A DNA stretch of 63,266 bases, filler included, from Globobulimina sp. (lineage: Eukaryota): assembly GCA_003354225.1 (NCBI GenBank). It is 15 parts of 15 records of this genome, joined end to end, with 100 filler letters (N's around TTAATTAATTAA, not from the genome) between each part and the next. Parts side by side here need not be neighbours in the genome. Positions count along the whole stretch, not along the records: positions 8,467 to 12,596 come from PIVH01001574.1; positions 12,697 to 16,825 come from PIVH01001575.1; 13 more parts are not named here. One strand, 5' to 3'. The position numbers and the translations under genes were made by a program. Below are positions 12,513 through 63,266 of the stretch, one piece after another; position 1 is the stretch's first letter, and every line of letters begins with the position of its first letter. The notes under the pieces were generated by a model. It was not told the DNA's origin. It made no database searches and saw only the letters and a program-made list of their open reading frames with translations.

Positions 12513-13086
12513 AAACAATAATTATATTAAATCACTCACACAAAATGTTGTATTTATAACTCGTTTTTTTTTTTAATTTGTTTTTTGTTATTATCTNNNN
12601 NNNNNNNNNNNNNNNNNNNNNNNNNNNNNNNNNNNNNNNNTTAATTAATTAANNNNNNNNNNNNNNNNNNNNNNNNNNNNNNNNNNNNNNNNNNNNAATC
12701 ATTACCACAAGTGATCTAAATCCCAACTTATGACTACTACCGATTTGCCTTTTTATTAACAAATTTGAATACTTCATTAACAATTTAATTAAAAAATGCG
12801 TGACATGTGCTCCATTCTATAAATATATTAGTACAACTAATATATATATTAGTACTAATATGCGTACCTCTTATCGGGAACACTACTGTACGAGAAACCG
12901 TGTTTGTTGTGTTGTTATCCTTTCATTGTTGTGAACTGCAAATAAAACTAAGTTGATTTTTAATATTTCCTCTCAAAAATATCTGTATTGCATTTTTGTT
13001 ACATTATTGTGTGTATTAAGTAACTAAATTTAAAATGGACTGCGTTTAACACATTGAAAACATTATAATGTAAACTTTGTAAATAG

Positions 13087-14173
13087 ATCAAGTATTAATT
13101 GATCGCAAAGCAAAATCGGATGGGATTTTGATTGAAAAGAAGGCCGTCATTGAAATGGCTTTAAAAGAATTCACACATTTATTATTAGATGGATTTGGAA
13201 ATATTTATTTATCGCGCACTGGAAAGCTTTCATTAAAAAGAAGGCGAATTTTAATGTATTATGGAAGACAGTGACTGAGAGAACATTAGATTTATTATTC
13301 AAATACGCCGAGAAAGATCAGGAGAATATGCCTGTTATTAAATATATATTGGCAAACTTGAAGAAAATGAGGCTGTTTATTAATGGAACAGTTAATTCTA
13401 TGATTAATAACAAAGACATTTCGAACGACTCGTTTTGGATTAAGATGGGAGTATGCTTCGAAGTGAATAATTTTGTGGAGAATGGCAAGAAATTGGATTG
13501 GAATTCGGCTGAATTTATGCATGAATGGACACAAATGAGTAAATCGGAGGATAAACCTGCGATTGTTATGAATGCATTGCCTGAGATTTGTTTGGGTGAT
13601 ATTGAAGAATCCGTATTAAATAATGATGAAAATAAGATGAAGAAAGATAAAAATAAAGATTTTGCGTGTTTTACCTGTGGGAAACCGCATTTTCAACGTA
13701 ATTGCCCTACGCAATTAAAGAAGAAATTGGCAGACGAAAGAAGAAGAAATCGAAGAAGTTGGGACAATAGGAATCAGTATGAATATGGAACGCATGCAAA
13801 ACGAAGAAAATTGAGTCGATCTGAAATGAGTCGGTCTTATTATCCGTATGAACCATATCGAGCAGCTTCAGAGTATGTAGAGGAGGAACAAAAGAGTCGT
13901 GGCAGTGAGAGAGGGCGAGACGTGGTCCATGTCAATGAACACCTTTATTTCAAGAGGAATGGACAGCATTTTATTAAGGAGGAATATAAAGGAAAGGAAA
14001 TCTGTAGATACGCGAAGAAGAAAAGATGCAGACATAATAATTTCATGGACTGCAATTACGGACATTACTGTTCTTTCTGTGGTATTGCTGGGGCTCATAT
14101 GTCCAAAGATTGTCCAAAAGCGCAATCGGGTCACTTTGCAGGACATTTTGATAGAAGCTCGAGGCGGCATTAG
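13087..14173 (+). pseudogene. gag-like 3' exon of the DIRS-like element (CCHC knuckles plus CCCH finger), with an internal deletion/frameshift near 13210
   Basis: After acceptor AG at 13085-86 it reads QVLIDRKAKSDG..LLLDGFGN, then shifts frame to WKAFIKKKANF..TER. Contains CFTCGKPHFQRNC, CRYAKKKRC..C..GH and CSFCGIAGAHMSKDC. Confidence 0.8.
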
Positions 14174-14670: not shown

Positions 14671-16523
14671 GCTAAAACAAGAGGTTATGTTGTCGAAAAT
14701 GTTTTATTTCTGTTATGGCTTGGGACACCCAATGGCTATGTTCCTTTATTTGTAAGACCAAAAGAGAGAGATCCCGTTACAGGAGAGGTATTACAATGGA
14801 GAGTGATTAGAGATGGTACCTTTGGATCGGAGGAGTTTCCATCATTGAATATGCTAACTGGCGACGATCAGGCTCATGTTAAATTATTTTATTTACAGAA
14901 TCTTGTGAATTATTGCTGTATATTTTATTTACAATGGGGCAGTGGTTTCTATTTAGCCAAAACAGATTTGGCCACTGCTTTTCGTCAATTACCGTTAGCA
15001 ATAACTGAACCTGAAAATTGTGCGTACAAATTTGATGGCAAAGTAATTTTGGATTGCTATGATTTTTGGGGTACGCGCTCAGGTTCGAAGCACACACAAG
15101 ATTGCGGTCGAATTGTGTGCAGATATTACAATCTTAAAATTAATGGATTACAGTTAGTGGAAGACGTTAATATGGCTATTGATAAATGCAATGTAATGTA
15201 TTTTTATGATAAGTTTGTCAATGAGCTGAAGAATGAAAGTGTTTGTAATGAAGAATATGTATTATTGTTTAAATGGAATGCAAATATAATAAAACGTTGG
15301 TTGAGTAATAATGATATGAAGATTGTATGCAAATTGGTAGATGCATACATACATACCAAATGGCAATGCATTGATATCATTAAATGAATGTGCTGCTGCT
15401 ATCAATTTACCGTCAGATATTTTCAGATTATTAAAAAATGTCAACTTTTTCAACAAATTATTGATTTTGAAGTTGAAATGTAAGCAATTAATGCATTTGA
15501 TTTTGAATAATTATATTGATGATTACGTATTATTTCTGCCACCAATTTTACAGACTGCAAATGAGATTTTTCTGAATTTCTGTAAATTTTTGAAGGTGTT
15601 AGGTTTGGAAGAATTGCCTCGAAAAAGAAATGGCCCAAATACATTATTAGAGATAATCGGTTATGTCATTGATTCTAAATTAATGAAGATATCTGTGTCG
15701 AAATTGAAGATACAAAAAATCAAAACTTTAATTTTTGCGGCTTTATTACATGAATCATTGATGTTGGATGAATTTGAATCATTAATTGGTAAATTGCAGG
15801 ATATTTCTAATTTGGCATGGCCTGGAAAAGCGTTTCTAAGGCGATTAAGAGAAAAATTGTATAAATATATTAAATTGTATGGGAGAAAGAATGTAGTCAT
15901 ACATTTGTCTGCTTGGGAATTGAAGGATTTATGGTGGTGGGCAAAGTATATTGATATTGTTACTTCAGTGTCAATATTAGATTTAGGGAATACGCGATTG
16001 CCGGAAGATGAAATTCATTTTGATGGTGCTACAAATGGATCGAGAATGAATGGATGGTGTCCGGCCATTGGTGTATGGTATAAAGGGCATTATATTTCAG
16101 CTAAAATACCAGAAAAATATACCAATATCTTTGTATCGCATAATAAAGAATATGAGACAGAATATGCGATTGCTCACTTTGAAATGATTGCGATTATTGT
16201 TGGATTGTATAATTTTAAACATTTATTCAAGCCATACACAAAATTAATGATGAAAACAGATAATAAATACGTTAAATATGTATTGAAAAATAAAAATGCG
16301 TCTGATGAGTTTTTACAATCATATCTGTATGTTTGCGGTGCAATATAAAATTCATATTTATATTAATTATGTGAATACAAAATTTAATAAATTGCCAGAT
16401 ATGGCTTCGAGATTTGATTATTATCGATTCAAGCAATTAGCAGGGAAAAAATGCAGGATAAATAATTGGAATTTGTTTAATCATTCAGCAAATTTTATGT
16501 TTCCTAATATACATGAATGGTAA
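14671..16523 (+). pseudogene. Reverse transcriptase-RNase H (pol) of the DIRS-like element; two frameshifts
   Basis: RT: VPLFVRPK..WRVIRDG..SLN, AKTDLATAFRQLP, FWGTRSG, YIDD (15512), LEIIGYVIDS, ESLIGKL. RNase H: FDG, AHFEMIAI, KTDN, NKLPDMASR. Frameshifts at about 15350 (CATA duplication) and about 16318. Confidence 0.85.
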
Positions 16524-17063
16524 TTCATTGTTGAAATACACTGACCTTTTTGCATATTGTTGTATGTGATATTTCTGTGTTGCATGCATTTAAATATTAA
16601 AAATATAAAAATAAAAATAAAACTAAAAGTAAAGGAGCCATGCATTTTAAGCACTGAAGGGGGCCCAAACACAAAACTATAAAATAAACACAAAAAACTA
16701 AACTATATAGTCAGAAAAAGAACGTTTAATAATCCAGTTTTTAATCTGGTTGCTCCCATATATATGGTGGTGTAAAGATATCGTCAGAGGGAACGTATCA
16801 AGATGGTTTCTTAGAATTTTGGCGANNNNNNNNNNNNNNNNNNNNNNNNNNNNNNNNNNNNNNNNNNNNTTAATTAATTAANNNNNNNNNNNNNNNNNNN
16901 NNNNNNNNNNNNNNNNNNNNNNNNNCGACTTATTTTGCGTTATATATGCTTGCAGCACTTGTGTTTGTTTAGTTTATTGAATATATCAACTGTAATCCAG
17001 TATTGTTTCACTTTAAGAAACATTTTCAAATTTTGAGTGAAGTCGAAGATTGTTGATCCAAAC

Positions 17064-21153: not shown

Positions 21154-21375
21154 TCAATTGCCACACCTGGCGCAAATACTGTCAAATATGGTGGCAATAC
21201 CTCGTGTCTCGAGATGCGCTGCGGTGACAAGGTCTTAATTTTTGATGGCGGCACCGGAGTGCGATATCTCGGCAACCATCTGGCCAATGAGGCGCCGCTG
21301 GATATCGACATGTTCCTGACCCACACCCATCTGGACCACGTTTGCGGGTTGCCGTTCTTCAAGCCATTTTATGAT
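21154..21375 (+). CDS. Fragment of a bacterial MBL-fold metallo-hydrolase (chimeric contig end)
   Basis: SIATPGANTVKYGGNTSCLEMRCG..IFDGGTG..FLTHTHLDHVCGLPFF (HxHxDH motif). GC content is higher than the adjoining ligase. Confidence 0.9.
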
Positions 21376-23127
21376 GCGCAAAACAAAACTCACCGGCTAT
21401 TTCACTGAAAGAGTTATGTAAAAACGCTCTCCGTTCAGCAAATGTTGCAGATATTAATGGCTTGTCATTGATTAATAAACAGTCAAAGGCATAAATACAA
21501 ACAGATACAGAAATATCAGTTGCTTTCACATTCTTCCGTTTGCGTGTAATTAACGTGGCAAATGGCAAAATCGTATTGTTCGTACGGTCAAATGCGACGA
21601 TTTCCGAATCGATAATAAACGATGAAATATCTTTATGTTTAAATCTATTCACTGTACCTAATAATTCTGGGAATTTCCCTGTGTTATCCTCCGCATTGCG
21701 GGAGAATATTTTAATAGTTCCATCCGATAATAAATGGATTTGTGCGCGTTCCCCATCGTATTTATACTCCAATGTAAAGCGCATATTTTCAAATCTTTTC
21801 AATATCTCAGAGATCCCTTTCGTGGGTTTCGCCAACATTGCTTTGATGGGAATGCCGGAGGTTAAATGGCAATGTTTGCTTAAATTCTGTATCCCATATT
21901 TTATCAATGAATCGATTATCATTTCATAATTTGGTAACTGCGAAACAGCAGTTTTTAATATCGTTGTATATAAAGCCTCCAAATCTGCCAATTTTTGATA
22001 ATTTTGTTGCTTTTTTTTATTGAAAATATTTAATTCATTGAAGGCCAATGCTCGGCCTAACGCACTTAGCACCGTTTGCTCGTTGACACCAATACGTAAT
22101 CTGCCTTGTAAATGCCGTACGATATATCGACATTCACTGCTTTGTGAGGAGACAAATAATCGTTGAATATTTCGCACTTTTTCTTGTTGTGTGCCAGTGC
22201 CCGAAGTGGACGCTATTTTTTTGAAGGTTTCAAACACATTTTTGACGGTTAATGGTTTGGGTTTAAATAACGTATTTTGTTTAGAGCGACAATTTACAGC
22301 CACATCGCCTAAATCGCCCTGTTTGGTGCAGTCGGATTTGATGTCGCGCAATTTTCTCCCCGTGGACTCGCATAAGGCTTTCAAGATTATGCCATCACCG
22401 ATACCTAATTCAAGCCCATCGTATGGCGGTGCTATCTCATTGCAACATAAGTAGACACAATGCAGTAATTCAGAGGAGCGTAAATGCAAAATACTGCGAA
22501 ATACACGGCTTATAATCTCAATCTTTTCTAATCGTTTGGTGGTCGCAGCTAATTTATCAAACATCGATGCAATGATAATATATTCCACTTCTTTCTTAGG
22601 GTTGAAACCACAGTCATTTACGACGTCATATTTGCAGGCAGCTTTCAATGAGGATTCTCTTTGTTTTTAGGTGTAAAGAAATATCTGGAATATTCTGAGA
22701 AGAACTTAACTCACTTGATTTTGGACAATGGCATGGAGGGTTTATTGTTTTTTTTAGTTGGGTTTGTGTTGAGGTTGAGGTCGGGATGGAAATCGTCGTC
22801 ATCTGCTTCCATGGATTCATCCGGATCTGATATGCATTTTTCTTCCTCATTATTATTGATCTCATTAACTTGTTGTTTAATTTTAAGAGATTTAATCGAT
22901 GGAATGGTATCATTTTCCGATTTCTTATTGTTTTCTTCAGTTTCTTGGTTGTCTTTATTGTCCGTATTTTTATTGTCTGTATTTTTATTGTCTGTATTTT
23001 TATTGTTGGTGTTATTGGTTTGATTATCTGGCTGTATTAATAATTTTCTTTTCTTTTTTGCAGGAGCTAAAGATTCATCGTTATCACTATTTTTACGTTT
23101 TCGACTGAAAAAATTGCGAATGTCCAT
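21370..23127 (-). CDS. LIG1: ATP-dependent DNA ligase I; C-terminal part replaced by bacterial sequence
   Basis: N-terminal PIP-box-like MDIRNFF; intron 22659-22714 joins in frame; ELGIGD, GRLRIG, MLAKP; adenylation motif EYKYDGERAQIH; FIIDSEIV; AFDCL. Confidence 0.95.
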
Positions 23128-33729: not shown

Positions 33730-33972
33730 NNNNNNNNNNNNNNNNNNNNNNNNNNNNNNNNNNNNNNNNNNNNTTAATTAATTAANNNNNNNNNNNNNNN
33801 NNNNNNNNNNNNNNNNNNNNNNNNNNNNNAATTTAATGGATGTCATTCATTCCTATTTTATCCATTCAGTTGACATTGGATTTAATATTGTAAACGATCT
33901 AAATATAAATATAAAGAATGAGAATGAGAATAATATTTATTATGATAATATTTATTATGATATGGTAATTAT

Positions 33973-36900
33973 TTGAACCCAAAAGCAGTTCCATTTATTC
34001 CCAGTGAAACATTGGTATCTCGTTACTGTGGAACTGATAATAAATATGATGCAGATATTGAAATGGATGAAACTAAAATTAATGACATGAACACTGTACC
34101 ATACCACGACCATTTTATTATTGACAGGACTCGAACAGTCTATGTTTGTCCCATTACAGACTGTGACAAACACCGCAACATTGATCACAGAATGTCATTT
34201 ATCGATTATTGGGTAAACAGACACATAAATAGCAAGAAACCTGTTAGATTCTATGGATTTGCTAAGAAGGCACAATTAAAAACACATTTAACCAAATTTC
34301 ATTTATTAGGTAACCCGAGCTCAATCCCTACAAAATATTTAATAAAAAATAATTATAATATTTGCAGAATTTGCAGCAAATTTTGCAAACGCACTACAGA
34401 CGCTCATCCAGGATGCACTCAGAAAGAAAATCAAATTTCTGTTTTGCCAGAATCATTAGTTCCATTCCAAAATGTTACATTAACAGAGATTCAGGCATTG
34501 CGACCGAAATTATTATTTGATATCCCTCAGTCGTGTCGAACATTATTTGCTGACATTTTGAGCCAAATTTTGGAATCATTGGCCAATAATAATGAAGACC
34601 ACGATTTTAACTTTAAATTGTATCATGTTTTTAGTAAAATGGTTTTATTAAAGCCACCTAAGCGTGGTGGCAAAAGTAAATATATGCAACGAGCGAAATT
34701 ATGTAAAATACGCTTGAAGCTGTTTCGTGACAAAAAATATGACTTATTATGGACACATTTATTGGATCACATGCAAATACTCACAAATTTGACACAGAAA
34801 CGTTCGAAACAACAACGAACTCAGTCAGCAGCAAATCGGATCGTAACCAATCGCCGCAGAGCGGTTAATTATGTACGCGAAGGAGACCTAAGCCGAGCGG
34901 CTTCAGCTCTGACCACCAACGGTATGGCACCTTGGACGGATAGAATTGTTCAACAAATGGTTGATAAGCATCCAACACAACAGCCGCCGGATATTTCTAT
35001 ATTTGACACGGATAATTTACCAGAAATTGATTTATTATCAGGTGAAGTCCACAAAACTTGCCTCAAACAGCAAAAATTTGGTGGTCCGGGTCCCAACCTT
35101 TTGCGCCCATATCATATCAGACAATGTGCGCGTAGTTATAACGGACGCAAATTGTCTAAAAGCATCGCAAAATTTGGCAGATATTTATTCAATGGACAAT
35201 TTCCGCTGCATTTAGGCAAATATTTCGCCGCGTCATCTTTGTTCGCATTATGGAAAAATAATAAATTGACAGATGCGAGACCCATCGCTTCCGGCGACGT
35301 TATTGACCGCATTGTCAGCCGGACAGTTATGAGAAACAAACGAGCGGAATGGAGGGAAATATTGGAACCAGAACAAGTTTGTTTATCTGAACGCGGCACA
35401 GAAAAATGTATCTTTGCCTGTGCGCATGCGATTGCTGCCAACGCAAACAATAAAAATTGGGTATTAGTAATGGTTGACATTAAAAATGCCTATAACACCG
35501 GAGACAGACAAATTAAATTATTAGCAACAAGCAAATATGCCCCAGAATTATTACACTTTGAGTTATTAAAATATAACGACAGTATCCCATTATATTTATC
35601 AAATGGTGATATTATTCAATCTCAGGCTGGTGGCAAACAGGGAGATACTTTGGCTGCTTTAAATCACGGTTTCTTTGATAAACATTTGATAGATTCTATT
35701 AGGAATAAAGAAATGTATAATGACTTATTAAATATTGCATATGCAGATGACCGACAGTTCGGTGCCGATTTAGAAACTGCAGCGGAGTTTTACAAAGAAT
35801 CAAAAACGAGTTTAGGTGCTGCGGGCAGTGAATATAAATCAAGCAAATGTACTATTTTTGTGCACCCAGAAAACACATTTATTAACCATGATGTTACGGA
35901 GTTAAATGAGGAAAAGGCCGAAAAATTGAGGAATAAAAAAATCAGAGAAATGTTCGGTGATTCAGATATTAAAATTACATACGGATTTAATATGGAATTA
36001 CTCGGAGCATTTTTAGGGAGTAACGATTATATCAAATCAAAAATTAATAAAAAAATTAAAGATTTACAATATTTAATGGATCAAGCTGCAGCATTGGAAG
36101 ACACCCAATCCGCTGCATTATTATTATCAAATTGTTTTGACGCGTGTCGTATGACCCATATCATACGTACGACTCATCCAAATATTATTATTGAAGCATT
36201 GAAAGATTTTGATTACTCTTTGAAAAACTCATTTGAACGGATTTTTGGTAAATCATTTACGGACTTTGAATTTATGGAATTATGCTTAGGTATTAAGGAA
36301 GGCGGACATGGAGTACGCACTATTGAAGATATTTCAATCGCGGCTTATCTGGGTTCCTATGCTCAAGCAATACCATACTTACAGACCATTGGTGATAAAA
36401 TTCATTGCGATTTATTATCTAATTATTTGTTCGATGATTTTGTCAAACTCAAACAACAATTTTGCGACAATTATAATGTGAATATTGATAAGTTAAGCGA
36501 CAACTTATTATTACAACAAGACACATTATCGGAATATATTAAGGAATTTAGATTAAATATATATGAATCAAATTTAGTCTCAGCAATTGATAAAAGTCGT
36601 CATTCAACGGCTAAAGCCCCTTACGCGGGAGCTTGGATTCGCGCAAAACCAACGCGCCCAGCAACATTGCTGCCGTCAATATCATACAAGCTAGCTACCT
36701 ATCAAAGATATGGGTGGCCAATTTTTAACTGGAATTTTGACGACAAAACTTGTACTGATTGCGATAAGGAAATGGATAAATATGGCACACATTGTATAAA
36801 TTGTGGAAGTAAAGACGGTGTTTTCACGTATACTCACAATAAAGTGCGTGATTGCATTGCTAACTATGCGAAGAGAGCTGGCTTTTTAGTTGAAAAGGAA

Positions 36901-37329
36901 AAGCCGGGTTTATTGGATTCTGGTGCGAAACCAGCGGATATTTATTTTTATAACTATTTACGTGGACAGGATTATGCTTTTGATGTTACGGTGGTATCAC
37001 CGTATAAATTAAACTCATTGGCAGACACTATACGTTTTCCGTGTATGTCAGCCGATAACGCCATTCGGAACAAATATAAAAAATATAGCAAAGATATCGA
37101 ATCGGTTCATTGGAAATTCCAACCGATTGCATTTGAGAGAAGTGGAGGGTGGAGTTTGCCCGCCCAACTACTTATTAAGAGGATCTCCAAACAATTTGGA
37201 TCGAAATATAATATCAATGAAAACATTATAATAAATTCAATCATTTCGGAGATAAGCTGTATACTCCTAAAAAGCACAGCATATATGATTGCAAAACGGA
37301 AGGTTGATAATGGCCCATCGGATTTATAA
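33973..37329 (+). mobile_element. Non-LTR retrotransposon with restriction-like endonuclease (CRE-like), single open ORF of 1118 aa
   Basis: N-terminal Zn-finger-like CPITDC..HLTKFH. RT: RPIASGD, DIKNAYN, QGDTLA, AYADD, ELLGAFLG. CTDC..HCINC knuckle and HNKVRD. RLE: KPADI..DVTV..KYKKY..PIAFERSGGW. Confidence 0.93.
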
Positions 37330-39565: not shown

Positions 39566-42094
39566 TTAATCATGGTATTTTTCACCTCTTCCAATACCAA
39601 TTTGAAGCATTTTGGCAAGAAATCGTTTCCTATACATACTGGGCTCAATACATGAGATTCCATATCCATCGACACATTTGATAAACACTTTAAAAAATCG
39701 TTCAATTCTTTTTTCAAAATTATAATCCTGTAAAATATCAATTATTCCCATCAGATAAAATCCAGGACCTTCAATCATTCGCGATTGGTATGACATTGGA
39801 TGGGAAGACAGCTGCGTTAATCCGGTACCTGCGGTAAATGCCCTTCTTCGCAACGCAGGTTCCGATGATTTCCCTTTTGGCGAAAACTTATCTTCCAATT
39901 TACTGAAATCTTTCTTCATTGCACTCATTGTATTTAAATCTAAAATATCTGATTTATTATACTGCACCGAGTGTATTCCAGTTATATCGTCGGCATCATC
40001 GCCTTCCTTTAACTCTCCTTGTTTTAGCTCTTCATTCTCATTCTCTTTCTCGTCATGTATTTGTAATTCTATATTGCTCTCATTCTCATTCTTATTCTTA
40101 TTCTCATTCTCGTTATGTGGCGGCTTATAGCTTCCACCGCGTGTAGCATTTGCATTGAATGACCAGTTTGATTTTGAGAAATTTGCATTTTGTGTAGAAA
40201 TACCAATATAATAAATCCCGAGCAGTAAAGAGTAATCCATAATGTTTAAGGTATTCAGGAAACGCGTATCATGCGACATTTGTTCCCACGCTTTCTTACT
40301 TTTTAAGTATGGAATTAATACATTTTTTTTAAGATCTTCATCTTTCATCAATTTGCCTAACTCAATGTGGTGTTTTGTGTGCCGATTAATCCACGAACCT
40401 TTAATGTCGTATTTTTCATGAGGCTCTAAATCGGGAATGAATAAATATTTCATTATTGTAAAATAGAGCCTCGTGCCGTATAACTTTATCCCATATAAAC
40501 CATAAAACTTTGTTATAAACGAATGTGGAAACTTCCTCATATGTTCAAAATAACCGGGCAATATTCGTAAAAATGTAATGGCTTCGGACTTACGCAACGT
40601 TTTAACCATAAATTCACTGTTTGGTGTCATAAAAAAGAATGCGCCGGATTTGCCTTCAGAGAATTTCGCAGATAATTCATCCATCGTTGAATGATTATCG
40701 ATTGCTATTTTCACGGATTGTGCATACTCGGTCTCTGAGGTCGAAAAACAATTTGCACGCAAATACTTAAAGACGTGCGGCGAATAATCGATAAAATCAA
40801 TCTGGTCAATACCGCCGGAACTATGCGATGCCATTAAAAACCTGTGGATGCTCTGATTATTTGTGTACTCCATCTCGAGCGCCGAACCTTTCTTCATCCG
40901 ACTTATTGTATTGATGGGGGAGAAATGCTCTGCATTTATTGAGTAGGCGCCATTGCCATTGCCATTGGTGTTATATTCCCGATTATGTGTAAAATGGTCC
41001 AAACTTTGGGTGACGCCCGAACACATATTCCGGATTAATTCCAGACGCAACGCAGACGACATATTCATATTATTGCTATTCTTGTTGCTGTCCATATGCA
41101 TTGCCATGGTCATGGATGGCGAGCGATACTCAAAGGAAAGTATGTCCTGATCCGGATCCGCGATGTTGCCATCCTTTGAGTTTCCATCCATTTGTTGCCT
41201 TTTCCGCAAGAAATTCCCTAAATAGGTTGATCTATACATATAAATGGTTGCTTTTTTCATTCGAAATTTTTGTAGTACCCAAGTGGTGCAGTCAATGGAG
41301 GCGGTCCCGACAATGATAAAAGAGACAGCAAAGGACAGGCCGCCAGAGCCTAACGTTTGTAGTAATAATATAAACCAGGCAATGCCGAGAATAGTATATA
41401 ATAATACAAAAATGATATGGTCTTTAACCATAATGGTCGCGTGCTGGAAAACCTCACCCAAACCATTTTTTAGTCGAAAAAACACAAATATTAATGATAA
41501 GAGACCAGACAAAGTGCCAATGATATATGGACCTAAAAATGTAAACCATTCTTGTATTTTTTCGGGTTTGTTGCTCTTATTTATGCCCAAAAAACAAAGC
41601 TCTCCGTTATGTTCGTGCCTATAGCCATTGCCATTAATAATGGAGAATATCAGTGTAAGAATGGCAGACAATGTCCATGAGCAAATGTGCACAATTCGTG
41701 CGGTATAAGACACAGAGCGTAATGGGTATGTACAGGTTGTATATAAGTCATAACACATTCCAATAAAATAAAATTGTGATGACATGAAGAAAAATGCAAT
41801 TAATGGACCCCAATCAGAACATATGGCTGCTTTTGCAGTGGGATTTAATCCGCCATCGTCCACAACTGCGGATAACAATAAAGTGGAAAATATAAACCCG
41901 GTGTCTGCTAAAGTGCGCGCAAAATGTAATCCTGCTGGATGCGATCGAATACGTTTAAATCGACAAAATGTATATAAAACAAATATTAATAAAGGTGCTG
42001 CAATTGAGCCTGATATGATATATGCGTTTGATGGGTCCGACCATGTGTTGTCCAGGTCGGAATATTGAGGACTTGTTGGATTTGGACTTGCCAT
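39566..42094 (-). CDS. GPCR-PIPK: 7TM (cAMP-receptor-like) domain fused to phosphatidylinositol-phosphate kinase
   Basis: Seven hydrophobic segments, linker ALRLEL..SGV, then FIDYSPHVF..LR, SEGKSGAFF, FMVKT, YDIKGS, MKDED, IMDYSLLLGI and GIIDILQ.Y...K..E. Confidence 0.93.
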   Translation of the reverse strand: MASPNPTSPQYSDLDNTWSDPSNAYIISGSIAAPLLIFVLYTFCRFKRIRSHPAGLHFARTLADTGFIFSTLLLSAVVDDGGLNPTAKAAICSDWGPLIAFFFMSSQFYFIGMCYDLYTTCTYPLRSVSYTARIVHICSWTLSAILTLIFSIINGNGYRHEHNGELCFLGINKSNKPEKIQEWFTFLGPYIIGTLSGLLSLIFVFFRLKNGLGEVFQHATIMVKDHIIFVLLYTILGIAWFILLLQTLGSGGLSFAVSFIIVGTASIDCTTWVLQKFRMKKATIYMYRSTYLGNFLRKRQQMDGNSKDGNIADPDQDILSFEYRSPSMTMAMHMDSNKNSNNMNMSSALRLELIRNMCSGVTQSLDHFTHNREYNTNGNGNGAYSINAEHFSPINTISRMKKGSALEMEYTNNQSIHRFLMASHSSGGIDQIDFIDYSPHVFKYLRANCFSTSETEYAQSVKIAIDNHSTMDELSAKFSEGKSGAFFFMTPNSEFMVKTLRKSEAITFLRILPGYFEHMRKFPHSFITKFYGLYGIKLYGTRLYFTIMKYLFIPDLEPHEKYDIKGSWINRHTKHHIELGKLMKDEDLKKNVLIPYLKSKKAWEQMSHDTRFLNTLNIMDYSLLLGIYYIGISTQNANFSKSNWSFNANATRGGSYKPPHNENENKNKNENESNIELQIHDEKENENEELKQGELKEGDDADDITGIHSVQYNKSDILDLNTMSAMKKDFSKLEDKFSPKGKSSEPALRRRAFTAGTGLTQLSSHPMSYQSRMIEGPGFYLMGIIDILQDYNFEKRIERFFKVFIKCVDGYGISCIEPSMYRKRFLAKMLQIGIGRGEKYHD

Positions 42095-42943
42095 TGTTGA
42101 CTGATTAGAATTTTTGCTTTTAGTTAAAGAAAAAACGCAAGGAACGCTTTTTTTTTATTTTCATTATTTTAAANNNNNNNNNNNNNNNNNNNNNNNNNNN
42201 NNNNNNNNNNNNNNNNNTTAATTAATTAANNNNNNNNNNNNNNNNNNNNNNNNNNNNNNNNNNNNNNNNNNNNAACTTTGCATAAATATTTGTAACATTT
42301 TATAATAATGAATAGCAAAATAAATGACAGCAATATTAAACAAAACATCCGGGATCAGTAAAAATAGAAACAAATCAATATATGGGTTTACCACAAATAT
42401 TTTTGTAATAATAATATGGATCAAAAGTATGGAATGGAATTTTTATTTCATTTTATTTTTGAATATTGTTATGTTATTAATATACATATGAATAATTATT
42501 TAATTTATCAAACTTTGCATACATTACAGTCTGTTGAATGTAGCCGTAATAGTTTAGTTTGTGTATTGTCCGATGGAATATTGGGTATTTTAATAAGTTA
42601 TTTATGGCGATCTCATCCAAATTGGCATCACATTGAATGGGTCGAACAGCATCAAATGCATAAACATCAAATAAATGAATACGATGCAACAAAACTAAAA
42701 TTAATGGTTAGTAAAACACAAAATAACTTGTTATTGAAATTAAATGAATTAACAACGATAATTGCAGAGAATTGCCAAGATGGAAAACGAAAGAAACGAG
42801 AAATCTCATTGGTTCTCAGATAGACACTGTTTATTTGTATGTTATATATGTTTATAATATCCATACATTGTCAATATTCAGCTTTTAATAATTTAATCGC
42901 AAACCGACTATAAATTACTTACAAATAACAACTAAAAAAAATA

Positions 42944-54930: not shown

Positions 54931-56022
54931 GGCCATTCCCCACCAAAAAATGGTCAGAAAACACCTCTCAAATCTCCAAAAATTGCTTCCTCCTCTGCTT
55001 TGACTAAAGACGATCAATTGATAAGTGATGAAAAGGACTCTGAGACATTATGTGATAACTGTTCTGGACCCACGGACAATGATTCCATTGGTTGCTTTAT
55101 TTGTGCCTCAAATTGGCAATGTACTGAATGTATAAAACGTCATTTGGGAATCTCAGCAAAAACTCAATTTAAATCCACTTGCAAACAATTGAAGAAGGAA
55201 GGACTTAATGGATCTTGGCAATTTATTTGTACTCAATGTCGACCAAAATTACGTCAATTTAGTGCTACATTATTAAAAGGTACAAAACAGTCGATTTTAT
55301 CTGTTACCCCTGATCCTGTTATTGTCTCAACACTGGACCAGAAATTGGAAACCCTTCAATCTACAGTCAATCAACTGGCCCAACAGATGGTAACTGTGCA
55401 ACAATCACTTAAACCTTCCCTCTCATTTGCTGAAGCTGTCAAAAACAAACATGGTCCTATTATTCCTAAATCGTCTTTCATTAATGATAACAAAATGCAA
55501 CCACCTGTGCCAGTCAAACAACAGGTTGTCACTATTGACCAAATGGAACGCGAACACTTTGAAAGACAAAACCGAGCTAAAAACATTGTCATATCTGGTC
55601 CTGAAATCGACAAAAACTCTGATGAACAGTTAGTTATGCAAATTTTTGAACAAATCAATGTAAATTATAATGCTCATGTTCATCATGTCCAAACAGAACA
55701 ATATAAATCTGGTCAAATTCGTCTTGTAGTCACTCTCGATTCCAATGAAAGCAGAGACATTATTATGAAAGAAAAACGTCATTTGAAAGATTGTGATGGA
55801 TTTTCGGATTATTACATTAATGTCCATTTGACCCCTCTCCAAGCCAAAGAACAATTTGAACTGCGTCAACAACTTAAAGAAAAGGTCTCTAACAGGCGGG
55901 AGGATGGGGCTAGACGATTCTTCATCGACTATAAAAGAATGCGAATCCGGAGTCACAAAATCACCATCGACAATGCAGGCTCTCCTACTCAATGCGCAAA
56001 GCCTGCGGAACAAGAAATATAA
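54931..56022 (+). CDS. LINE ORF1 (PHD-like finger, coiled coil, nucleic-acid chaperone)
   Basis: CDNC..IGCFIC..C..FICTQC, SFAEAV, RAKNIVISG and YINVHLT. The frame is open to the contig start. Confidence 0.85.
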   Translation, partial: GHSPPKNGQKTPLKSPKIASSSALTKDDQLISDEKDSETLCDNCSGPTDNDSIGCFICASNWQCTECIKRHLGISAKTQFKSTCKQLKKEGLNGSWQFICTQCRPKLRQFSATLLKGTKQSILSVTPDPVIVSTLDQKLETLQSTVNQLAQQMVTVQQSLKPSLSFAEAVKNKHGPIIPKSSFINDNKMQPPVPVKQQVVTIDQMEREHFERQNRAKNIVISGPEIDKNSDEQLVMQIFEQINVNYNAHVHHVQTEQYKSGQIRLVVTLDSNESRDIIMKEKRHLKDCDGFSDYYINVHLTPLQAKEQFELRQQLKEKVSNRREDGARRFFIDYKRMRIRSHKITIDNAGSPTQCAKPAEQEI

Positions 56023-58792
56023 ATTTGAAACTCAAGTGTTATCTACAACCAAACCTAATCTAGTCGCTGTTTGTGAAACTTGGTTTAATTCTGACGAAAG
56101 TTTAAACATTTTACCTAATATGTTCCATGACTACATTGCAGTTAGAAAAGACAGAACTAACATTGGAGGAGGAGTTTTGTTATTATTTGATCAATCATTA
56201 TTTCCTGTATCTGTTACATGTTCAATTGATGCTGAAGTTGTCTGTGCAGATCTACATTACTGTCAACCACCACTACGTGTTATATGTGCCTACCTTCCCA
56301 GCCGTCAACCTGAACTGGCCAACAACCTAAAAGATGCATTACGTGAGTTAATTATCCCAGAACGTCCTATACTATTGTTAGGTGATTTGAACCTGCCACA
56401 TATTGACTGGCCCTCTTTGACAGCAAGCAATGGTGATAGAATAGAAAATGATCTAGCTGACTTTTTTGCTCATTATGGCCTTATTCAAACTGTCAATCAA
56501 TCTACTCATGTACGAGGTAATATATTAGATGTTGTCTTATGTAATGAGCCATATATGGTATTGGAAGCCATTCCCGATCCTGCGGCAGCCATTTCTGACC
56601 ATTTTCCAGTCAGAATAGAATTAGCCCTTAAGCCAACACAACAAGTTGAAAAACCACCTCGGCCTCAATGGGACAAAGCCGATTATGATATTATTAGAGC
56701 ATATTATGCAACAATTGACTGGGATTTAGAACTTAATTCATGCCAAAATGTTGAAGAAATGTGGTCTAAATTCAATTCTCATTTCGAATACATATTGTCT
56801 GAAGGTTATGTCCCTTTCTCAGCTATGAAAAAGAAACGAGCTCCATGGATTAACACCAAAATAGAAAGGCTAATTAAAAAACGACAAAAACGTTGGCGAT
56901 CATACAACAAAGACATAAATAATTGCCATAAACTTGCTGCCTACCAAGAAGCTGACCGAGTTACAAAGAAAGAAATCGAACAAGCAAGGAAACACTATGA
57001 AGACAAAAAATTATCCAATCTGAAGCATGGTCCAAAGTCGTTTTTTGGCTTTGTCAATCGATCATTAAAATATCGTCAATCAATCCCACCCTTGAAGCAA
57101 AATAATGGAATAGCTGTGTCAGATTTTGACAAAACAGAAGCACTCAATAATGCATTTTCTAAGAATTTTAGTCATGACGATGGCAAGCATCCCCCTCTGC
57201 GAGCTTCTCCAGTCAACAGTTTCCTATCCGATGTCCATTTTAATGCCAATATGATATGTCAAGAACTACGTAGATTTAAACCTGATTCAGCCCCCGGACC
57301 TGATGGCATCCACCCTCGATTCTGCCGCGAAATTGCATCACTAATTTCTTATCCATTGTCTATTATATTTACAAAATCCATGAATGACTGTCAAATACCA
57401 AATGATTGGAAAATTGCCAATATTACACCTATATTCAAAGGAAAAGGAAGTACCTCCGACCCAAATGGTTATCGACCCATATCATTGACTAGTATTATTG
57501 CAAGAGTAATGGAATCGATTATACGTACTTCATTATTAGACCATTTACTATCAAACCATTTGATCTCCCGCCATCAACATGGATTCCTATCAAAAAGATC
57601 GACTCAGACACAATTACTTGAATGTCTTAATGATTGGACTAAGGCGCTGGATGAACGTAAGAAAATTGATGCAATTTATCTCGATTTAGCTAGAGCATTT
57701 GACAGTGTGTGCCATTCAAAACTGCAAATGAAACTCGAAGCCTATGGCATACAGAACAACCTCCTTATGTGGCTGAAGAATTTTCTCCAAGGTAGGAAAC
57801 AATGTACTGTATTAAATGGAGTATCATCATCATGGACTAATGTTATATCGGGTGTGCCCCAGGGGACAATTCTGGGCCCAATCCTATTCAACTTGTTCAT
57901 AAATGATGCAGTGAATCAAATCAGCCCTGGTGGTACATTAAAACTATATGCAGATGATTCCAAATTATACCGCATTGTCACTGGCCCTCCTGATGTTCAT
58001 AAACAACAACAGGACTTACTTGCACTTGAACAATGGACCACACTATGGCAATTACATTTCAATGCGGAAAAATGTTCTGTGCTTCAAATGTCTAATCATC
58101 AAGAACCCAATGACTACTACTTGTCTGGAATGGTACTAAAACCCAGCATTATGGAAAAAGACCTTGGAGTCTACATTCAAAATGATTTAAAATCACACGA
58201 ACACTGTAAACAAGCTGCAGCTAATGCCACAAAAATAGCCATGTCAATCAAAAGAACGTTCAGTCACCGACATGAAACTGGATTATTTAAACGTCTATAT
58301 TGTACATATGTGCGTCCCCACCTAGAATACTGCAGTACTGTATGGTCACCTCAAACAAAAATGGATGCGGACCTTATTGAAAAGGTTCAACGACGATTCA
58401 CAAAATATATTCCAGCTTTGATTGGTCTCACTTACCCTGAACGACTAAAAAGACTTCAAATTCCAACTCTAGAAGAACGCCGATTAATAGCCGATCTATG
58501 CCAGGTATACAAAATCTACAATGGACTTGACACTTTAATTTTCAATGAATTTTTTATTAAAAACGAAAATCATACAAGAGGCCATAATTTCAAATTATGC
58601 AAAGAAAGACCAAATTGCTGTACAAGGGCCAATTATTTCTCTGTCAGAATAGTCGACTCATGGAATGCTCTTCCTCCAGAAGTTGTTGGAGCAAGATCAC
58701 TTGCTGTTTTCAAACAGATGCTTGGGAAAATCAATTTATATGATTTGAATGGTGGAAACTGGCGTGTTGGATCTGCAACCTATTTGCTATAA
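55973..58792 (+). CDS. LINE ORF2: APE endonuclease plus reverse transcriptase
   Basis: NAQSL, VCETW, GDLN, ILD, SDH, PGPDGI, YRPISLTS, DLARAFD, GVPQG, YADD, EKDLGV and YVRPHLEYC. Confidence 0.96.
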   Translation: MQALLLNAQSLRNKKYKFETQVLSTTKPNLVAVCETWFNSDESLNILPNMFHDYIAVRKDRTNIGGGVLLLFDQSLFPVSVTCSIDAEVVCADLHYCQPPLRVICAYLPSRQPELANNLKDALRELIIPERPILLLGDLNLPHIDWPSLTASNGDRIENDLADFFAHYGLIQTVNQSTHVRGNILDVVLCNEPYMVLEAIPDPAAAISDHFPVRIELALKPTQQVEKPPRPQWDKADYDIIRAYYATIDWDLELNSCQNVEEMWSKFNSHFEYILSEGYVPFSAMKKKRAPWINTKIERLIKKRQKRWRSYNKDINNCHKLAAYQEADRVTKKEIEQARKHYEDKKLSNLKHGPKSFFGFVNRSLKYRQSIPPLKQNNGIAVSDFDKTEALNNAFSKNFSHDDGKHPPLRASPVNSFLSDVHFNANMICQELRRFKPDSAPGPDGIHPRFCREIASLISYPLSIIFTKSMNDCQIPNDWKIANITPIFKGKGSTSDPNGYRPISLTSIIARVMESIIRTSLLDHLLSNHLISRHQHGFLSKRSTQTQLLECLNDWTKALDERKKIDAIYLDLARAFDSVCHSKLQMKLEAYGIQNNLLMWLKNFLQGRKQCTVLNGVSSSWTNVISGVPQGTILGPILFNLFINDAVNQISPGGTLKLYADDSKLYRIVTGPPDVHKQQQDLLALEQWTTLWQLHFNAEKCSVLQMSNHQEPNDYYLSGMVLKPSIMEKDLGVYIQNDLKSHEHCKQAAANATKIAMSIKRTFSHRHETGLFKRLYCTYVRPHLEYCSTVWSPQTKMDADLIEKVQRRFTKYIPALIGLTYPERLKRLQIPTLEERRLIADLCQVYKIYNGLDTLIFNEFFIKNENHTRGHNFKLCKERPNCCTRANYFSVRIVDSWNALPPEVVGARSLAVFKQMLGKINLYDLNGGNWRVGSATYLL

Positions 58793-59148: not shown

Positions 59149-59930
59149 TCTTATTTGTCGGTGTCTTGGGGTTGCGAGGGGCTGAGTGTTATGAGAATTG
59201 TGACAAACATTATGAAGGGTATGGTGTTTATGTCAGTGATTTGGACTTTTATTGGACTGAGGATGAGGAACACGTGACGCATTCGCGCAATATCCACACT
59301 TTGACATATATCAATAATGCGTATTCACAGTCCTTTGAGAATTTGCACCATGTTCGCATCCGTCTACGTCACTCGAAGTCGGCCAGCATTGGTCATGATG
59401 TCTTTTTGCGTATTGGGCGCACGCAACGCCGCATTGAGCCAGTATGGATTTACTATCATGTTTTTAATTTACAGCGTCGGCATTTGCGTCCCCTGTATCA
59501 ATATCGGTTGGTCAAACGTTTTCTGTTTCAGGCGCCTGGGCGTGATTGTCGTTTGACAGCGGTGAAGCGTCAGTGGTCTGGCCTTATTCTGGAGTTAGGC
59601 TTTATTGATGGGCATCGATATCGCTTTCATGGATTGCGCAAAGGCTTTGCCACCACCTTGCAACAGCATGGTATCGTAACCAGTCTTATTGCGTATGCGG
59701 GTCGGTGGAAGTTGATGGCTGCGATTTATCGGTATCTTATCCACACTCAGAATGATTTACTTCCGTTGACTTTCACATATTTATATGGTTTATCGCACAA
59801 TCGAGATGTTGTGGATTTTGATACATCGGAGGTTGATTTGATGCAAAATTTGTCTCAGACCAAGCAGACATTGTCATCTTCCTTTTTCAAGGAGTATCAG
59901 GCCAGTCTCACCACCACCGATCCCTCTTAG
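59149..59930 (+). CDS. Tyrosine recombinase, DIRS-type (5' partial)
   Basis: Catalytic residues in order: GLRGAE (R), HSK (K), FHGLRKG (HxxR), AGRW (W) and IYRY (Y). Confidence 0.9.
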
Positions 59931-60372
59931 TGTATGTTGTGTATGTTTTGTTTGTTTCTAGGATTTACGATTTGGACTATTATTTGACTGTTATTTTTAC
60001 GTTATGGATGTTGTTTAGGTATATTGTGTGATACCAACTATTGTGTCTCAAGTAGTATTTAATAAATTAAAGTATTTGTGAATCAAAAAAGGATTCACCG
60101 TTTTTGTCCATATCGAAAATCAAAGTAAAACATAACGTTTTTTATAAACGAGTGTTTCACAGATTGAAGATATTTGTTATTGTCTATTTGTTATTGTTTT
60201 TGTGAATGTGAAAAATCTTTCTAGTCTAGTTTTTGTGACATTTTACTTCTATTCAAACTTTTGCATCGTCGCGAGAACAAAGCAGTACGAGCAGATACCA
60301 CATATCCCGTCTCTTCCGTAATTTCGTCGTTTTGGCTTTAGGCAAACTGACGACAAACTAGCAACGGTATCG

Positions 60373-63266
60373 ATGCTCCTCAACAGAATTACCAAATTGA
60401 AGAAGACTAATGTTGCGCGCATGCAGAAGTCAGCGTCGATGATATTGGCGACAGAATTTGTGAATGTCGATTTCGTCATTCATCCTGAATATTATAATAC
60501 CTGTGACTTTGGTGAAGAAGGCAAAGAAGATCAGGACGATATCAGCACGACCAATCAGAATTTGTTGTGTTTGATCGCTACCGAGGCTCGCCAGCAGGCG
60601 GCGGGGCAGATTCGTGGGAGCTTTGCAGGTAACACGTTGACCTCGTATAAGAAAAGCCAGCGGGTGGTGACTATCATCGGCTTGTTGATTATTGAGACGA
60701 TGGCGTGTTTAAAAGAGCCGACCATTATGTTGTTGAAAGATATTGTCGATGAGATACGCGAGTCAGTGGCAGCGTTTCTTGTCGTGAAGAATGCAGATCG
60801 AGCGGAGAATGCGAGGCTGAAGACATTCAAGCACATTAAATATGATAATTTGACGCAGTGGGGATTGGATGAGGTGGCGGCGAAAGAAGTACAGGAAATT
60901 CGCCAAATCTTAGGCTATGTCGCGATCCACAGTGCAACGTTGTTGGGCGCGGCTCCAGAATTCCAGGCCAATGCCAATACGCTTCAGGCAGTGGCGATTC
61001 CATCCATTGTTCCGAGAGATAGTTACATTGCTTTGGCGGCTGAGGCGTTTCAGGCGATTGAGGCGGGCGTCAAAACGCAGATGACATTGTTGCAGCCACC
61101 GCCCAGACCATCTTCACAGGCGCAGGCACCGCAGACGAGGGTGCGTTTAGACCCTCTCGGTGCTGACCGTATTGTTGATCTTTCAGGGGATCAGGAGGCA
61201 GCGAGGGCGCAGCAGCGTGATGTTGTTATGGTGGATAGGGCGAATGAGGAGAAGCTGGATAGCGCGCAGGTGTTGAGTCGTACGATGGGCATTAATACAG
61301 ACCGCTTGGATGCCGATGAAGCCAAGCAGCTGTTGAAGTATCTGAAAAAGTTGAATGATGATTCGAAGTCTGCGATTGTTGCAGAGACGCCTGCCGTTAC
61401 TCCGATGGATGAAATTCGCGACTTTGCCAACTCGCATGGTATTGGCGCTCAGGCGCAGAAATATAAGGTGACCGCCAAGGATAGAAAGGCTGTGGAAGGT
61501 TGGTGTGAGGCGCAAGGATCGAAGCGCGCGATTCATACCACAATGTCTAACAATAATGCCGGCTTAATGGCCATTTTGAAGAATGGTCAGCATGACCAGG
61601 TGACTTTTCAGGCGGCGATCACCCATATTGCAGCAAGTATGTTTGTATGTGTTTGGTTTGGTGTGTGGTTGGTTTGTGTGTGGTTTGTGTATACAAATTT
61701 TGGTTTGTCGTTTGTATTTGAGGCACCATACACTCATTTTACTGTTCGTACGTCTCCGTGTTCTCTTAGGGTTGATGAATAACGCTCTGTATATCCGCGT
61801 ATGTTTGCGCATCGTAAGCGGATGCAAGTGAACGGAATGCAACGTTTTTGGCCTTTGTGCCGCACCTTCATAGTGGCATAGCTATGGTGCAGGCTGTATA
61901 TCTTAAGTGTACGTGTTGTTAGGTTTGCCTGTTTCTGTTGTATTACTCCAATGATAAGCAGATTCAGTGCCGTTTTCCGTGGCCATAATATACATACACA
62001 CACGTTTATGTTTGTGCTTATGAGTTACATCGTGTTATTTGCAACAAATCAATAACATTTATTATGCATTTATTATCATCACATTACTATTAAGATCAAA
62101 TGTTGAATGAGAAGCGCGCGAAATCGGACGGCTTGTTGATTGCGAAAGAAGCAGAATTAAAATTGGCCACCGATGAATGCGTGCATTTGCTTTTAGATGG
62201 ATTTGGGAACTTATTTTATTTGATCAAATTTATGTGGTACAAGTACTGGAAATTCTATCTGCAGTGGGGGCAGACTATCAAAGCGGCGCTAAGGGCTTTT
62301 TTGGCCAAAAAGTCGAACTTTCATGTTTTTTTCACCACGTTTACCGAGCGGATATTTTATATGCTATATCAGAAAGCGACGGCAAGTAAGTATGCGGGAT
62401 TAGTTGGGTTTATTACGCGCAATATCAAGGCTTTTCTAGTTGCCGTGAGTACCAATGTTTGACGTATGATTAACGACAGAGCTATCACGCCAGCGATGTT
62501 CTGGCAGAAATTAGGCATTTTCTTTGAAGTGAATTTGTTTCGTTTTCATAATTCGGAGCGACGACTTTGGTGGAAAGGTGCGGAGTTTGCGCATCAATGG
62601 GATCAAATGAGCAAGTCCGAGGATAAGGTATTGCAAGTCATTCAAAGTGTGCCGGAGGAGTGCCTGGCGGAGTTCAAGCAGTCTATAGTTCGCACGTTTG
62701 GTGCGGCCAACAATTCCATCAATGTCTCCAACACATATCCGACCAATGCCAACCAATATAATAAGCCAATCAGTTGCTTTACGTGTCAGGGTCCTCATTT
62801 TAAACGAAATTGTCCGATTGAATTGCGGCGGCAGTTAAATATCCAAACCAGACGGACCAATCCGAATAACTGGCGGCGTCCCCGTGGCAATGGCAATTAT
62901 AATCGCAATCGAGTTCGCAATCCGAACACCAATAATGGCCAACATTATTATCGTCCGCCACCGATGCCCACTCAACCGAATCTACGACAGCGTGCTAACG
63001 CGCATGCGGGGGGTCAGAACCCTCAGTTCGTGGCACCGCAGCAACCCCGAGGTGCTCCCAATCGTTTCCCGCCTCGACCTACGATTCATGCCAATCAGAA
63101 TAATCATTTGGGTACGAATGCCGGTGGCAGTTATAATCATCATCCATCGGCTATGCGTGCACCGGTTGCCCGTCGAAAGCCGGGAGAGATTCATTATATA
63201 TTGAAACAGGGCCATCATTTCGTGAGACCGGAGACTGTGGGCACACCGCCATGTCGATATTTTGAC
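60373..63266 (+). CDS. Spliced gag-like gene with one in-frame TGA; 3' end beyond the window
   Basis: Exon 60373-61636, phase-1 GT-AG intron 61637-62094, then an exon from 62095 (AA-N-QMLNEKRAKSDG). TGA at 62460-62 is followed in the same frame by RMINDR..QMSKSEDK..CFTCQGPHFKRNC..QGHHF..CRY, open to the window end and missed by the ORF track. Confidence 0.8.

Follow-up and report, generated by a model that had tools for sequence, protein, structure and literature searches.

Retroelements copy RNA, and an intron lying in the sense orientation survives in their DNA only if the copied RNA escapes splicing. To our knowledge the proven intron-keeping cases are few, namely Ogre, copia, BARE1, the Penelope-like elements and the retroviruses. 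Splicing of element RNA is described as established for copia, BARE1, Ogre, CRR and env-bearing gypsy elements in the accessible part of PMC3735527, where Ogre is stated to be an element that 'splices between ORFs'. The definitions of the Ngaro-like, PAT-like and DIRS groups used here are those given in the accessible part of PMC13465315. In a retrotransposition assay of DIRS-1, an engineered sense intron was removed from new copies when it was spliced (PMC7192593, accessible part), so that a retained natural intron would need incomplete splicing. No report of a natural intron in a tyrosine-recombinase retrotransposon was found in the accessible portions of open-access text, nor was a description of a retrovirus-like splicing programme for the order DIRS. 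Introns had been attributed to 'a few fungal DIRS elements' in a preceding reading of this DNA from sequence only, an attribution that could not be traced in open-access text; in a survey of fungal DIRS and Ngaro elements (PMC3783388) the words intron, spliced and splicing are absent.

The window considered here, that is the whole stretch of DNA that was analysed, is 63,266 bases long and consists of 15 contigs, each of about 4.12 kb, with N44-TTAATTAATTAA-N44 spacers between them. Most of the contigs carry AT-rich eukaryotic genes with long ORFs, among them CCT chaperonin, DNA ligase I, amino-acid and ammonium transporters and a receptor–PIP kinase fusion, and the window also holds two non-LTR or reverse transcriptase (RT) ORFs. 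An 862-codon ORF on the minus strand (39569-42154) combines a 7TM receptor-like N-terminus (E 1.7e-5, below the cut-off) with a PIP5K kinase domain (E 4e-70). On the plus strand, a non-LTR element with AP endonuclease and RT occupies 55832-58789 (RVT_1 E 1e-28), and a 1122-codon retroelement ORF with a weak RVT_1 match occupies 33961-37326. The subject of this report is a pair of further elements: copy A on contig 4 (12697-16825, 31.6% GC) and copy B on contig 15 (59149-63266, 44.9% GC). Their features are collected in Table 1.

Table 1. Features of copies A and B, with coordinates along the window
Feature	Coordinates	Strand	Basis
Copy A, non-coding stretch, possibly the 3' part of an intron; AG at 13085-13086	12697..13086	+	
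Copy A, gag, proposed 'exon 2'; CCHC-like knuckle; frameshift at about 13207-13217	13087..14173	+	
Copy A, RT/RNase H in three frame pieces; frameshifts at about 15340-15360 and 16320-16335	14671..16523	+	
Copy A, probable (tentative) beginning of the tyrosine-recombinase ORF; conserved motif with no ATG ahead of it	16711..16825	+	
Contig 15, tyrosine recombinase, C-terminal 259 codons, then stop	59151..59930	+	
38-nt sequence at which contigs of three runs begin or end, with high depth	60128..60165	+	contigs of sequencing runs
Copy B, upstream ORF, 421 codons and 1 base, proposed 'exon 1'; protein without a named family	60373..61636	+	open frame
Copy B, proposed intron, 458 nt, GTATGT...TTAAG, GT-rich 5' end	61637..62094	+	
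Copy B, gag, proposed 'exon 2', running off the contig; ATG at 62100; in-frame TGA at 62460-62462	62095..63266	+	

As judged from their sequences, copies A and B are diverged members of one tyrosine-recombinase retrotransposon family. The gag of copy A aligns with that of copy B and with the C-terminus of gag in L003, a metagenome locus described below, and pieces of gag used in tblastn searches of the 15 contigs found matches in two, contigs 4 and 15. Both copies are damaged. Copy A has three frameshifts and is free of premature stops, and copy B has an in-frame TGA at 62460. The stretch 13081-14173 does not form one clean ORF, being broken by the first of the frameshifts in copy A. An AlphaFold model of gag reached a pLDDT of 40, too poor for a structure search.

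The RT and RNase H characteristic of the order DIRS are both present, in the form of a YIDD or YVDD motif and an RNase H-like match, in a layout that is kept in six relatives. In copy A the motif is YIDD, and the RT_RNaseH profile matches at E 5.5e-5, just below the Pfam cut-off; the RVT_1 profile gave no match to the RT of the family at E 0.01. The six relatives (P0004-P0009) were found among 1282 candidates, are 42-61% identical and come from metagenome or assembly sources. About 130 extra residues lie between motifs B and C of the RT (window positions 15060-15500; residues 60-210 of P0005). A pol intron at this position in copy A was considered and rejected, since P0005 reads through the 130-residue insert and the interruption in copy A is a frameshift.

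A profile scan of the JGI metagenomes with RT/RNase H returned three loci, L001-L003, and in each of them a recombinase ORF follows RT/RNase H, in the place of a DDE integrase. L003 comprises the C-terminus of gag with a CCHC knuckle and, beyond a gap of about 620 nt, the ORFs for RT/RNase H (713 codons) and the recombinase, in that order. The corresponding two ORFs of L002 are 735 and 470 codons long, and L001 is similar. All ORFs of the family are set apart by spacers, which measure 45-620 nt. The Phage_integrase profile matches L001 at E 1.3e-5 and L002 at E 4.5e-3, both below the gathering score, and the contig 15 recombinase at E 7.2e-4, below the cut-off. The last is 38% identical to the recombinase ORFs of L001 and L002, and its HxxR...Y residues were read by eye. 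The recombinase start at the end of copy A was placed by a weak tblastn match to the N-terminus of the L003 recombinase (E 0.03) together with a three-frame reading.

Neither a methyltransferase nor a protease or DDE integrase was detected in Pfam searches of the family loci. The pol ORFs of copy A, L002 and L003 close directly behind RNase H and are followed by the recombinase ORF, and the methyltransferase of DIRS1-like elements is absent. The order gag, RT/RNase H, recombinase, free of a methyltransferase, is that of Ngaro-like elements. The label 'DIRS-like' given to the family holds in the broad sense of an RT/RNase H combined with a tyrosine recombinase, but not in the strict sense, for want of the methyltransferase. 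A repeat search of the two contigs, both incomplete, found short repeats at chance level only, with no inverted terminal repeats and no internal complementary region. As to the split direct repeats of Ngaro-like elements (A1 ... B1 A2 B2), the cut contigs show a high-copy breakpoint of 38 nt at 60128-60165 and nothing else.

The gag frames of the two copies open at the same point. Copy A reads ...aaatag/AT CAA GTA and copy B reads ...attaag/AT CAA ATG, with exon starts at 13087 and 62095 respectively, and the seven bases AGATCAA at the boundary are identical. Ungapped identity between the copies is 34% from -60 to -3 and 58% from +1 to +90. The boundary at the AG is real and sharp in both copies; the letters and the step in identity agree with the sequence-only reading, which held that two diverged copies on different contigs share the position and phase of this AG. 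The sharp limit of homology at the AG and the order of the ORFs in the family are both plainly established. An in-frame TAA stands two codons before the boundary in copy A and directly before it in copy B. The 39 codons past the boundary comprise 11 that are identical between the copies, 11 that differ synonymously and 17 that differ non-synonymously, clearly the pattern of coding sequence. In copy A the first in-frame ATG comes 22 codons after the Q, past conserved codons; copy B has an ATG at 62100, two codons past the AG, which is a possible ordinary start codon. Earlier, the acceptor letters at the start of gag had been read correctly but the ATG at 62100 had been left unweighed.

As a reading of both copies, a 3' splice site where gag begins appears to be the better and the more economical one, since the coding conservation extends as far as the AG, which has a stop close before it, and copy A is without an ATG for 22 conserved codons. 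This reading is further favoured because the upstream stretches of both copies are T-rich (38-40% T), as are the host introns. In copy A the stretch before the AG has stops in all three frames (16, 5 and 8) and contains 38% T and 12% G, against 28% T and 24% G in the exon. The last 25 nt before the AG are 64% pyrimidine in copy B and 48% in copy A, a modest tract that counts against the reading. On the evidence of these letters, splicing at the putative acceptor has an even chance of being real, and somewhere between an even and a slightly better chance when a donor elsewhere is allowed for as well.

The most serious rival dispenses with splicing altogether. The upstream ORF and gag would then be separate cistrons, or parts of neighbouring elements, separated by a plain 458-nt spacer; gag would be translated from its own ATG (62100 in copy B), copy A would be a dead copy without a start, and the common AG would be due to chance. 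The ATG two codons past the boundary in copy B is what such a scheme expects, but in copy A the homologous codon would then have undergone two substitutions, or ATA one, and the first ATG of that copy follows 22 codons that show coding-type conservation. Both copies are indeed damaged, with three frameshifts in copy A and one stop in copy B; a two-base loss of the start codon (ATG to GTA) would nonetheless seem unlikely in copy A, because with three frameshifts and no premature stop that copy is only lightly decayed. The five bases between the AG and the ATG of copy B are identical in the two copies, whilst their non-coding DNA is unalignable. The scheme gains from the in-frame donor not being significant, from the 45-620 nt spacers that set all ORFs of the family apart, and from exon 2 by itself, which with low confidence is modelled as about 225 residues of helices plus the knuckle and may suffice for a complete Gag. 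The pol ORF likewise has ATGs at the start of homology in L003 and none in L002; L002 looks intact, however, and still lacks a pol ATG, and the recombinase ORFs are without starts of their own. Furthermore, we know of no obvious route by which a cistron downstream of a 421-codon ORF would be translated in a eukaryote. Translation without splicing is, on balance, unlikely, although it has to be taken seriously.

In copy B, where the region upstream of the AG is longer, a donor can be proposed. One base of a codon is left over at the end of the upstream ORF, and the A+AT CAA join keeps the frame across 61637-62094. The coordinates and frame given previously for a donor at 61637 and a 458-nt in-frame join are correct, but the join carries no weight as evidence, because 8 of the 30 GTs in 61560-61790 would join in frame to gag. 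The proposed intron is 40% T and 39% GC between flanks of 47-50% GC, and has stops in all frames. Six host introns read by eye are 30-91 nt long and T-rich, with GTA.. donors and AG ends, and the proposed intron is 5-15 times the length of those seen in the window, which speaks against it. GT-rich low-complexity patches occur at its start (61637-61720), after the recombinase stop (59931-59960), after the 38-nt breakpoint (60170-60215) and, in copy A, 150-185 nt upstream of gag (12900-12940). The choice of 61637 as the donor is more weakly inferred than the acceptor and is doubtful, and a fusion of the upstream ORF to gag across exactly these 458 nt is likewise unlikely.

The phrase 'conserved intron' claims more than the two copies show. 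The acceptor is shared by both copies (2/2), at the same place and in the same phase, but the donor and the upstream exon are visible only in copy B; the three metagenome loci end short of the gag boundary, and the count of conservation is one of copies A and B. Contig 4 has 390 nt ahead of the AG, and these contain nothing like the upstream ORF of copy B. A 66-codon ORF lying upstream of the GT-rich patch in copy A was tried as a homologue of exon 1 of copy B and was rejected, there being no alignment at E 100. Local alignment of the 390 nt with the 458 nt of copy B scored 21, against a mean of 21.1 for shuffled sequences, and this score was reached by 103 of 200 shuffles. The 458 nt fold at -117.3 kcal/mol, compared with -116.5 for shuffles (z -0.15), which is no signal of structure, and an Rfam search of contig 15 at E 0.1 matched no family. 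The suggestion that the intron carries a packaging or replication signal is not borne out by these three results, and a conserved RNA element in the proposed intron has no support.

The frame of the upstream ORF in copy B is open over 60322-61636. The ORF probably starts at the ATG at 60373, a codon that lines up with the first Met of P0002. Three relatives came out of an exhaustive search of 1.84 billion representative proteins; they are 140-173 residues in length and 28-38% identical, and each is a cluster of one member whose label names the transcriptome of the foraminifer Globobulimina turgida. They span residues 20-264 of the query only, short of the junction. Two of the three relatives, P0001 and P0003, end within a few residues of a common QPPxR motif (window positions about 61105-61130), and the ORF of copy B runs on for 170 codons past the motif. 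Their common end could be the end of an ORF, an exon border or chance. Pfam found no family for the upstream ORF, an AlphaFold model had a pLDDT of 36.5, too poor for a structure search, and in a look-alike search of the atlas the best score, 0.80, was at chance level. GC3 is 57% in the upstream ORF, 49% in the gag of copy B and 47% in the recombinase, compared with 31% in host genes. Other runs of the sample contain diverged pieces of the upstream ORF and of gag. Because its GC3 is element-like and diverged pieces of it, as of gag, occur in those runs, the upstream ORF would seem to be part of the element family.

The explanation that accounts best for these observations is a single family in which gag is opened at a spliced AG and 61637 is the best donor candidate in copy B; as a whole it stands a little short of an even chance. 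The gene order is upstream ORF, gag with a CCHC-like knuckle, RT/RNase H and recombinase. We infer that the gag AG is used as an acceptor, most likely as a phase 1 3' splice site that opens the gag frame. For the upstream exon of copy B the foremost candidate would be the 421-codon ORF with its donor GTATGT, and the spliced product would then have at least 812 residues to the end of the contig, where gag is still open. Gag would be translated from spliced RNA and new copies made from unspliced RNA, and the copying of unspliced RNA would leave the intron in the DNA. The DIRS-1 assay counts against this explanation, as there a spliced sense intron was lost from new copies (PMC7192593, accessible part).

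The starts of the other ORFs in the family lend the acceptor reading some support, since the recombinase and the pol of L002 are also without starts of their own. In the recombinase ORF, conserved coding sequence extends upstream of any ATG in copy A, L002 and L003. In L002 the pol frame stays open over 735 codons but has no ATG where homology begins; in L003, ATGs lie exactly at the start of the pol homology. Before the recombinase, L002 (2565-2592) and L003 (3580-3605) have 25-mers that are 88% and 84% pyrimidine respectively, followed by an AG at the same aligned column and in the same phase as the gag AG. L001 has no AG in the open frame before the first conserved recombinase residues, which counts against the reading.

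These starts also suggest a second alternative, in which the gag AG is a real acceptor but its donor lies elsewhere, for example in a short 5' leader, and the upstream ORF is skipped or gives an alternative product. One upstream exon would be spliced alternatively to gag, to pol and to the recombinase, in the manner of retroviral subgenomic mRNAs. Same-phase AGs do stand before gag (copies A and B), pol (L002 and L003) and the recombinase (L002 and L003), and such a scheme would provide for a recombinase and an L002 pol that have no ATG. The pattern was seen post hoc, however, with two copies per junction, and AG is a common dinucleotide; L001 is a misfit at the first conserved recombinase residues, the pol AG of copy A lies beside TAA+G, which is frequent by chance, and no leader exon, common donor or 5' end of the element was identified. 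A donor elsewhere is accordingly rated as improbable. The general proposal that the family, one of foraminifer-like marine protists, expresses gag, pol and recombinase by same-phase alternative splicing from one exon, replicates from unspliced RNA and keeps its introns would be a similarly long shot.

The quality of the assembly bears on the continuity of copy B. A 1099-nt contig of run X1 spans 61010-62108, unspliced and with no differences, and a second contig goes on from 62091, so that independent support for continuity over the acceptor is thin, consisting of an 18-nt overlap of two Logan contigs (62091-62108). Elsewhere in the window, contig 6 bears on its plus strand (21154-21366) a fragment of 54.5% GC that encodes the start of a metallo-beta-lactamase-fold protein (Lactamase_B, E 6e-6), adjoining a DNA ligase I gene of 33-39% GC on the minus strand (21362-22666) whose ORF ends within the adenylation domain. 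This suggests that contig 6 is a composite, through a chimeric join or bacterial DNA in the assembly, and thus that mis-joins occur in this assembly. The notion that contig 15 was itself mis-joined at repeats, with the upstream ORF, 'intron' and gag contiguous in no genome, can draw on contig 6, where a Lactamase_B fragment meets a ligase gene cut inside a domain, and on the breaks of the run contigs at 60127-60175 and 62091-62108, at a depth of 3-7, but is very improbable in view of the X1 contig and its continuation, the coherent composition of the three coding parts of copy B and the boundary in copy A, which it leaves unexplained.

In run X5 the summed depth at the 38-nt sequence within the first of these breaks rises to 163. 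Runs X2, X4 and X5 match the stretch on its left (59149-60164, 1016 nt) at 99+% identity, and the right side is absent from them. The 38-nt sequence may be a terminus of the element or the boundary of a repeat.

RNA junctions and further copies were sought in several collections. The five runs listed as carrying the locus include none on record as RNA, and the contigs of four runs contained four joints, all of them elsewhere and none at 61636/62095. Protein searches yielded no scored relative among 380 candidates for the gag of copy A and no relative among nine candidates for the first 122 gag residues of copy B. Locus scans with gag found no relatives in 309 metagenome stretches or in 79 stretches of viral contigs, and scans of viral contigs with the upstream ORF found none in 9 and 47 stretches. 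With RT/RNase H there were no relatives in 67 stretches of viral contigs or 29 stretches of prokaryote genomes, and none of the three metagenome loci (0/3) reaches the gag boundary. Pfam searches of short flanking ORFs, made in mapping host introns, gave no matches.

If splicing at the gag AG is true, it would show how a multi-ORF element of the order DIRS translates ORFs that have no start codons, and it would offer a handle on the sorting of spliced and unspliced RNAs in a poorly studied protist lineage. If it is false, there remains a divergent new family with an extra upstream ORF, of modest interest.

Among described elements, the Ngaro-like and PAT-like groups, as far as the accessible part of their definition (PMC13465315) goes, share with the family of copies A and B the combination of gag, RT/RNase H and recombinase free of a methyltransferase or DDE integrase. 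The present family differs from them in its extra 421-codon upstream ORF and the insert of about 130 residues in its RT, in having ORFs that are separated by spacers, several of them without start codons, and in an RT that matches no RVT_1 profile at E 0.01. DIRS-1 of Dictyostelium discoideum also has a tyrosine recombinase and RT/RNase H, but differs in that no methyltransferase, inverted terminal repeats or internal complementary region were found on the incomplete contigs of the present family. By its sequence the family lies nearer to the Ngaro/PAT layout than to DIRS-1 proper.

With regard to retained introns, parallels can be drawn with more distant elements. Penelope-like elements are likewise retroelements with retained introns, and Arkhipova et al. 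are said to have described in 2003 how they keep spliceosomal introns in genomic copies. Their RT belongs to an unrelated lineage; they have one ORF and a GIY-YIG endonuclease and replicate by another mechanism. Ogre, a Ty3/gypsy element of legumes, likewise has an intron between coding regions, with translation from spliced and copying from unspliced RNA. Its intron was reportedly detailed by Steinbauerova et al. in 2008, and its splicing demonstrated by experiment. Ogre is an LTR element with a DDE integrase, and its intron is situated further downstream, near pol. In copia, BARE1 and the subgenomic mRNAs of retroviruses, alternative splicing determines which protein is made, according to the accessible part of PMC3735527. 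Splicing in these elements removes coding sequence, yielding Gag or Env alone, whereas in the family of copies A and B an upstream ORF would be fused to gag, or a start codon would be brought close to ORFs further downstream.
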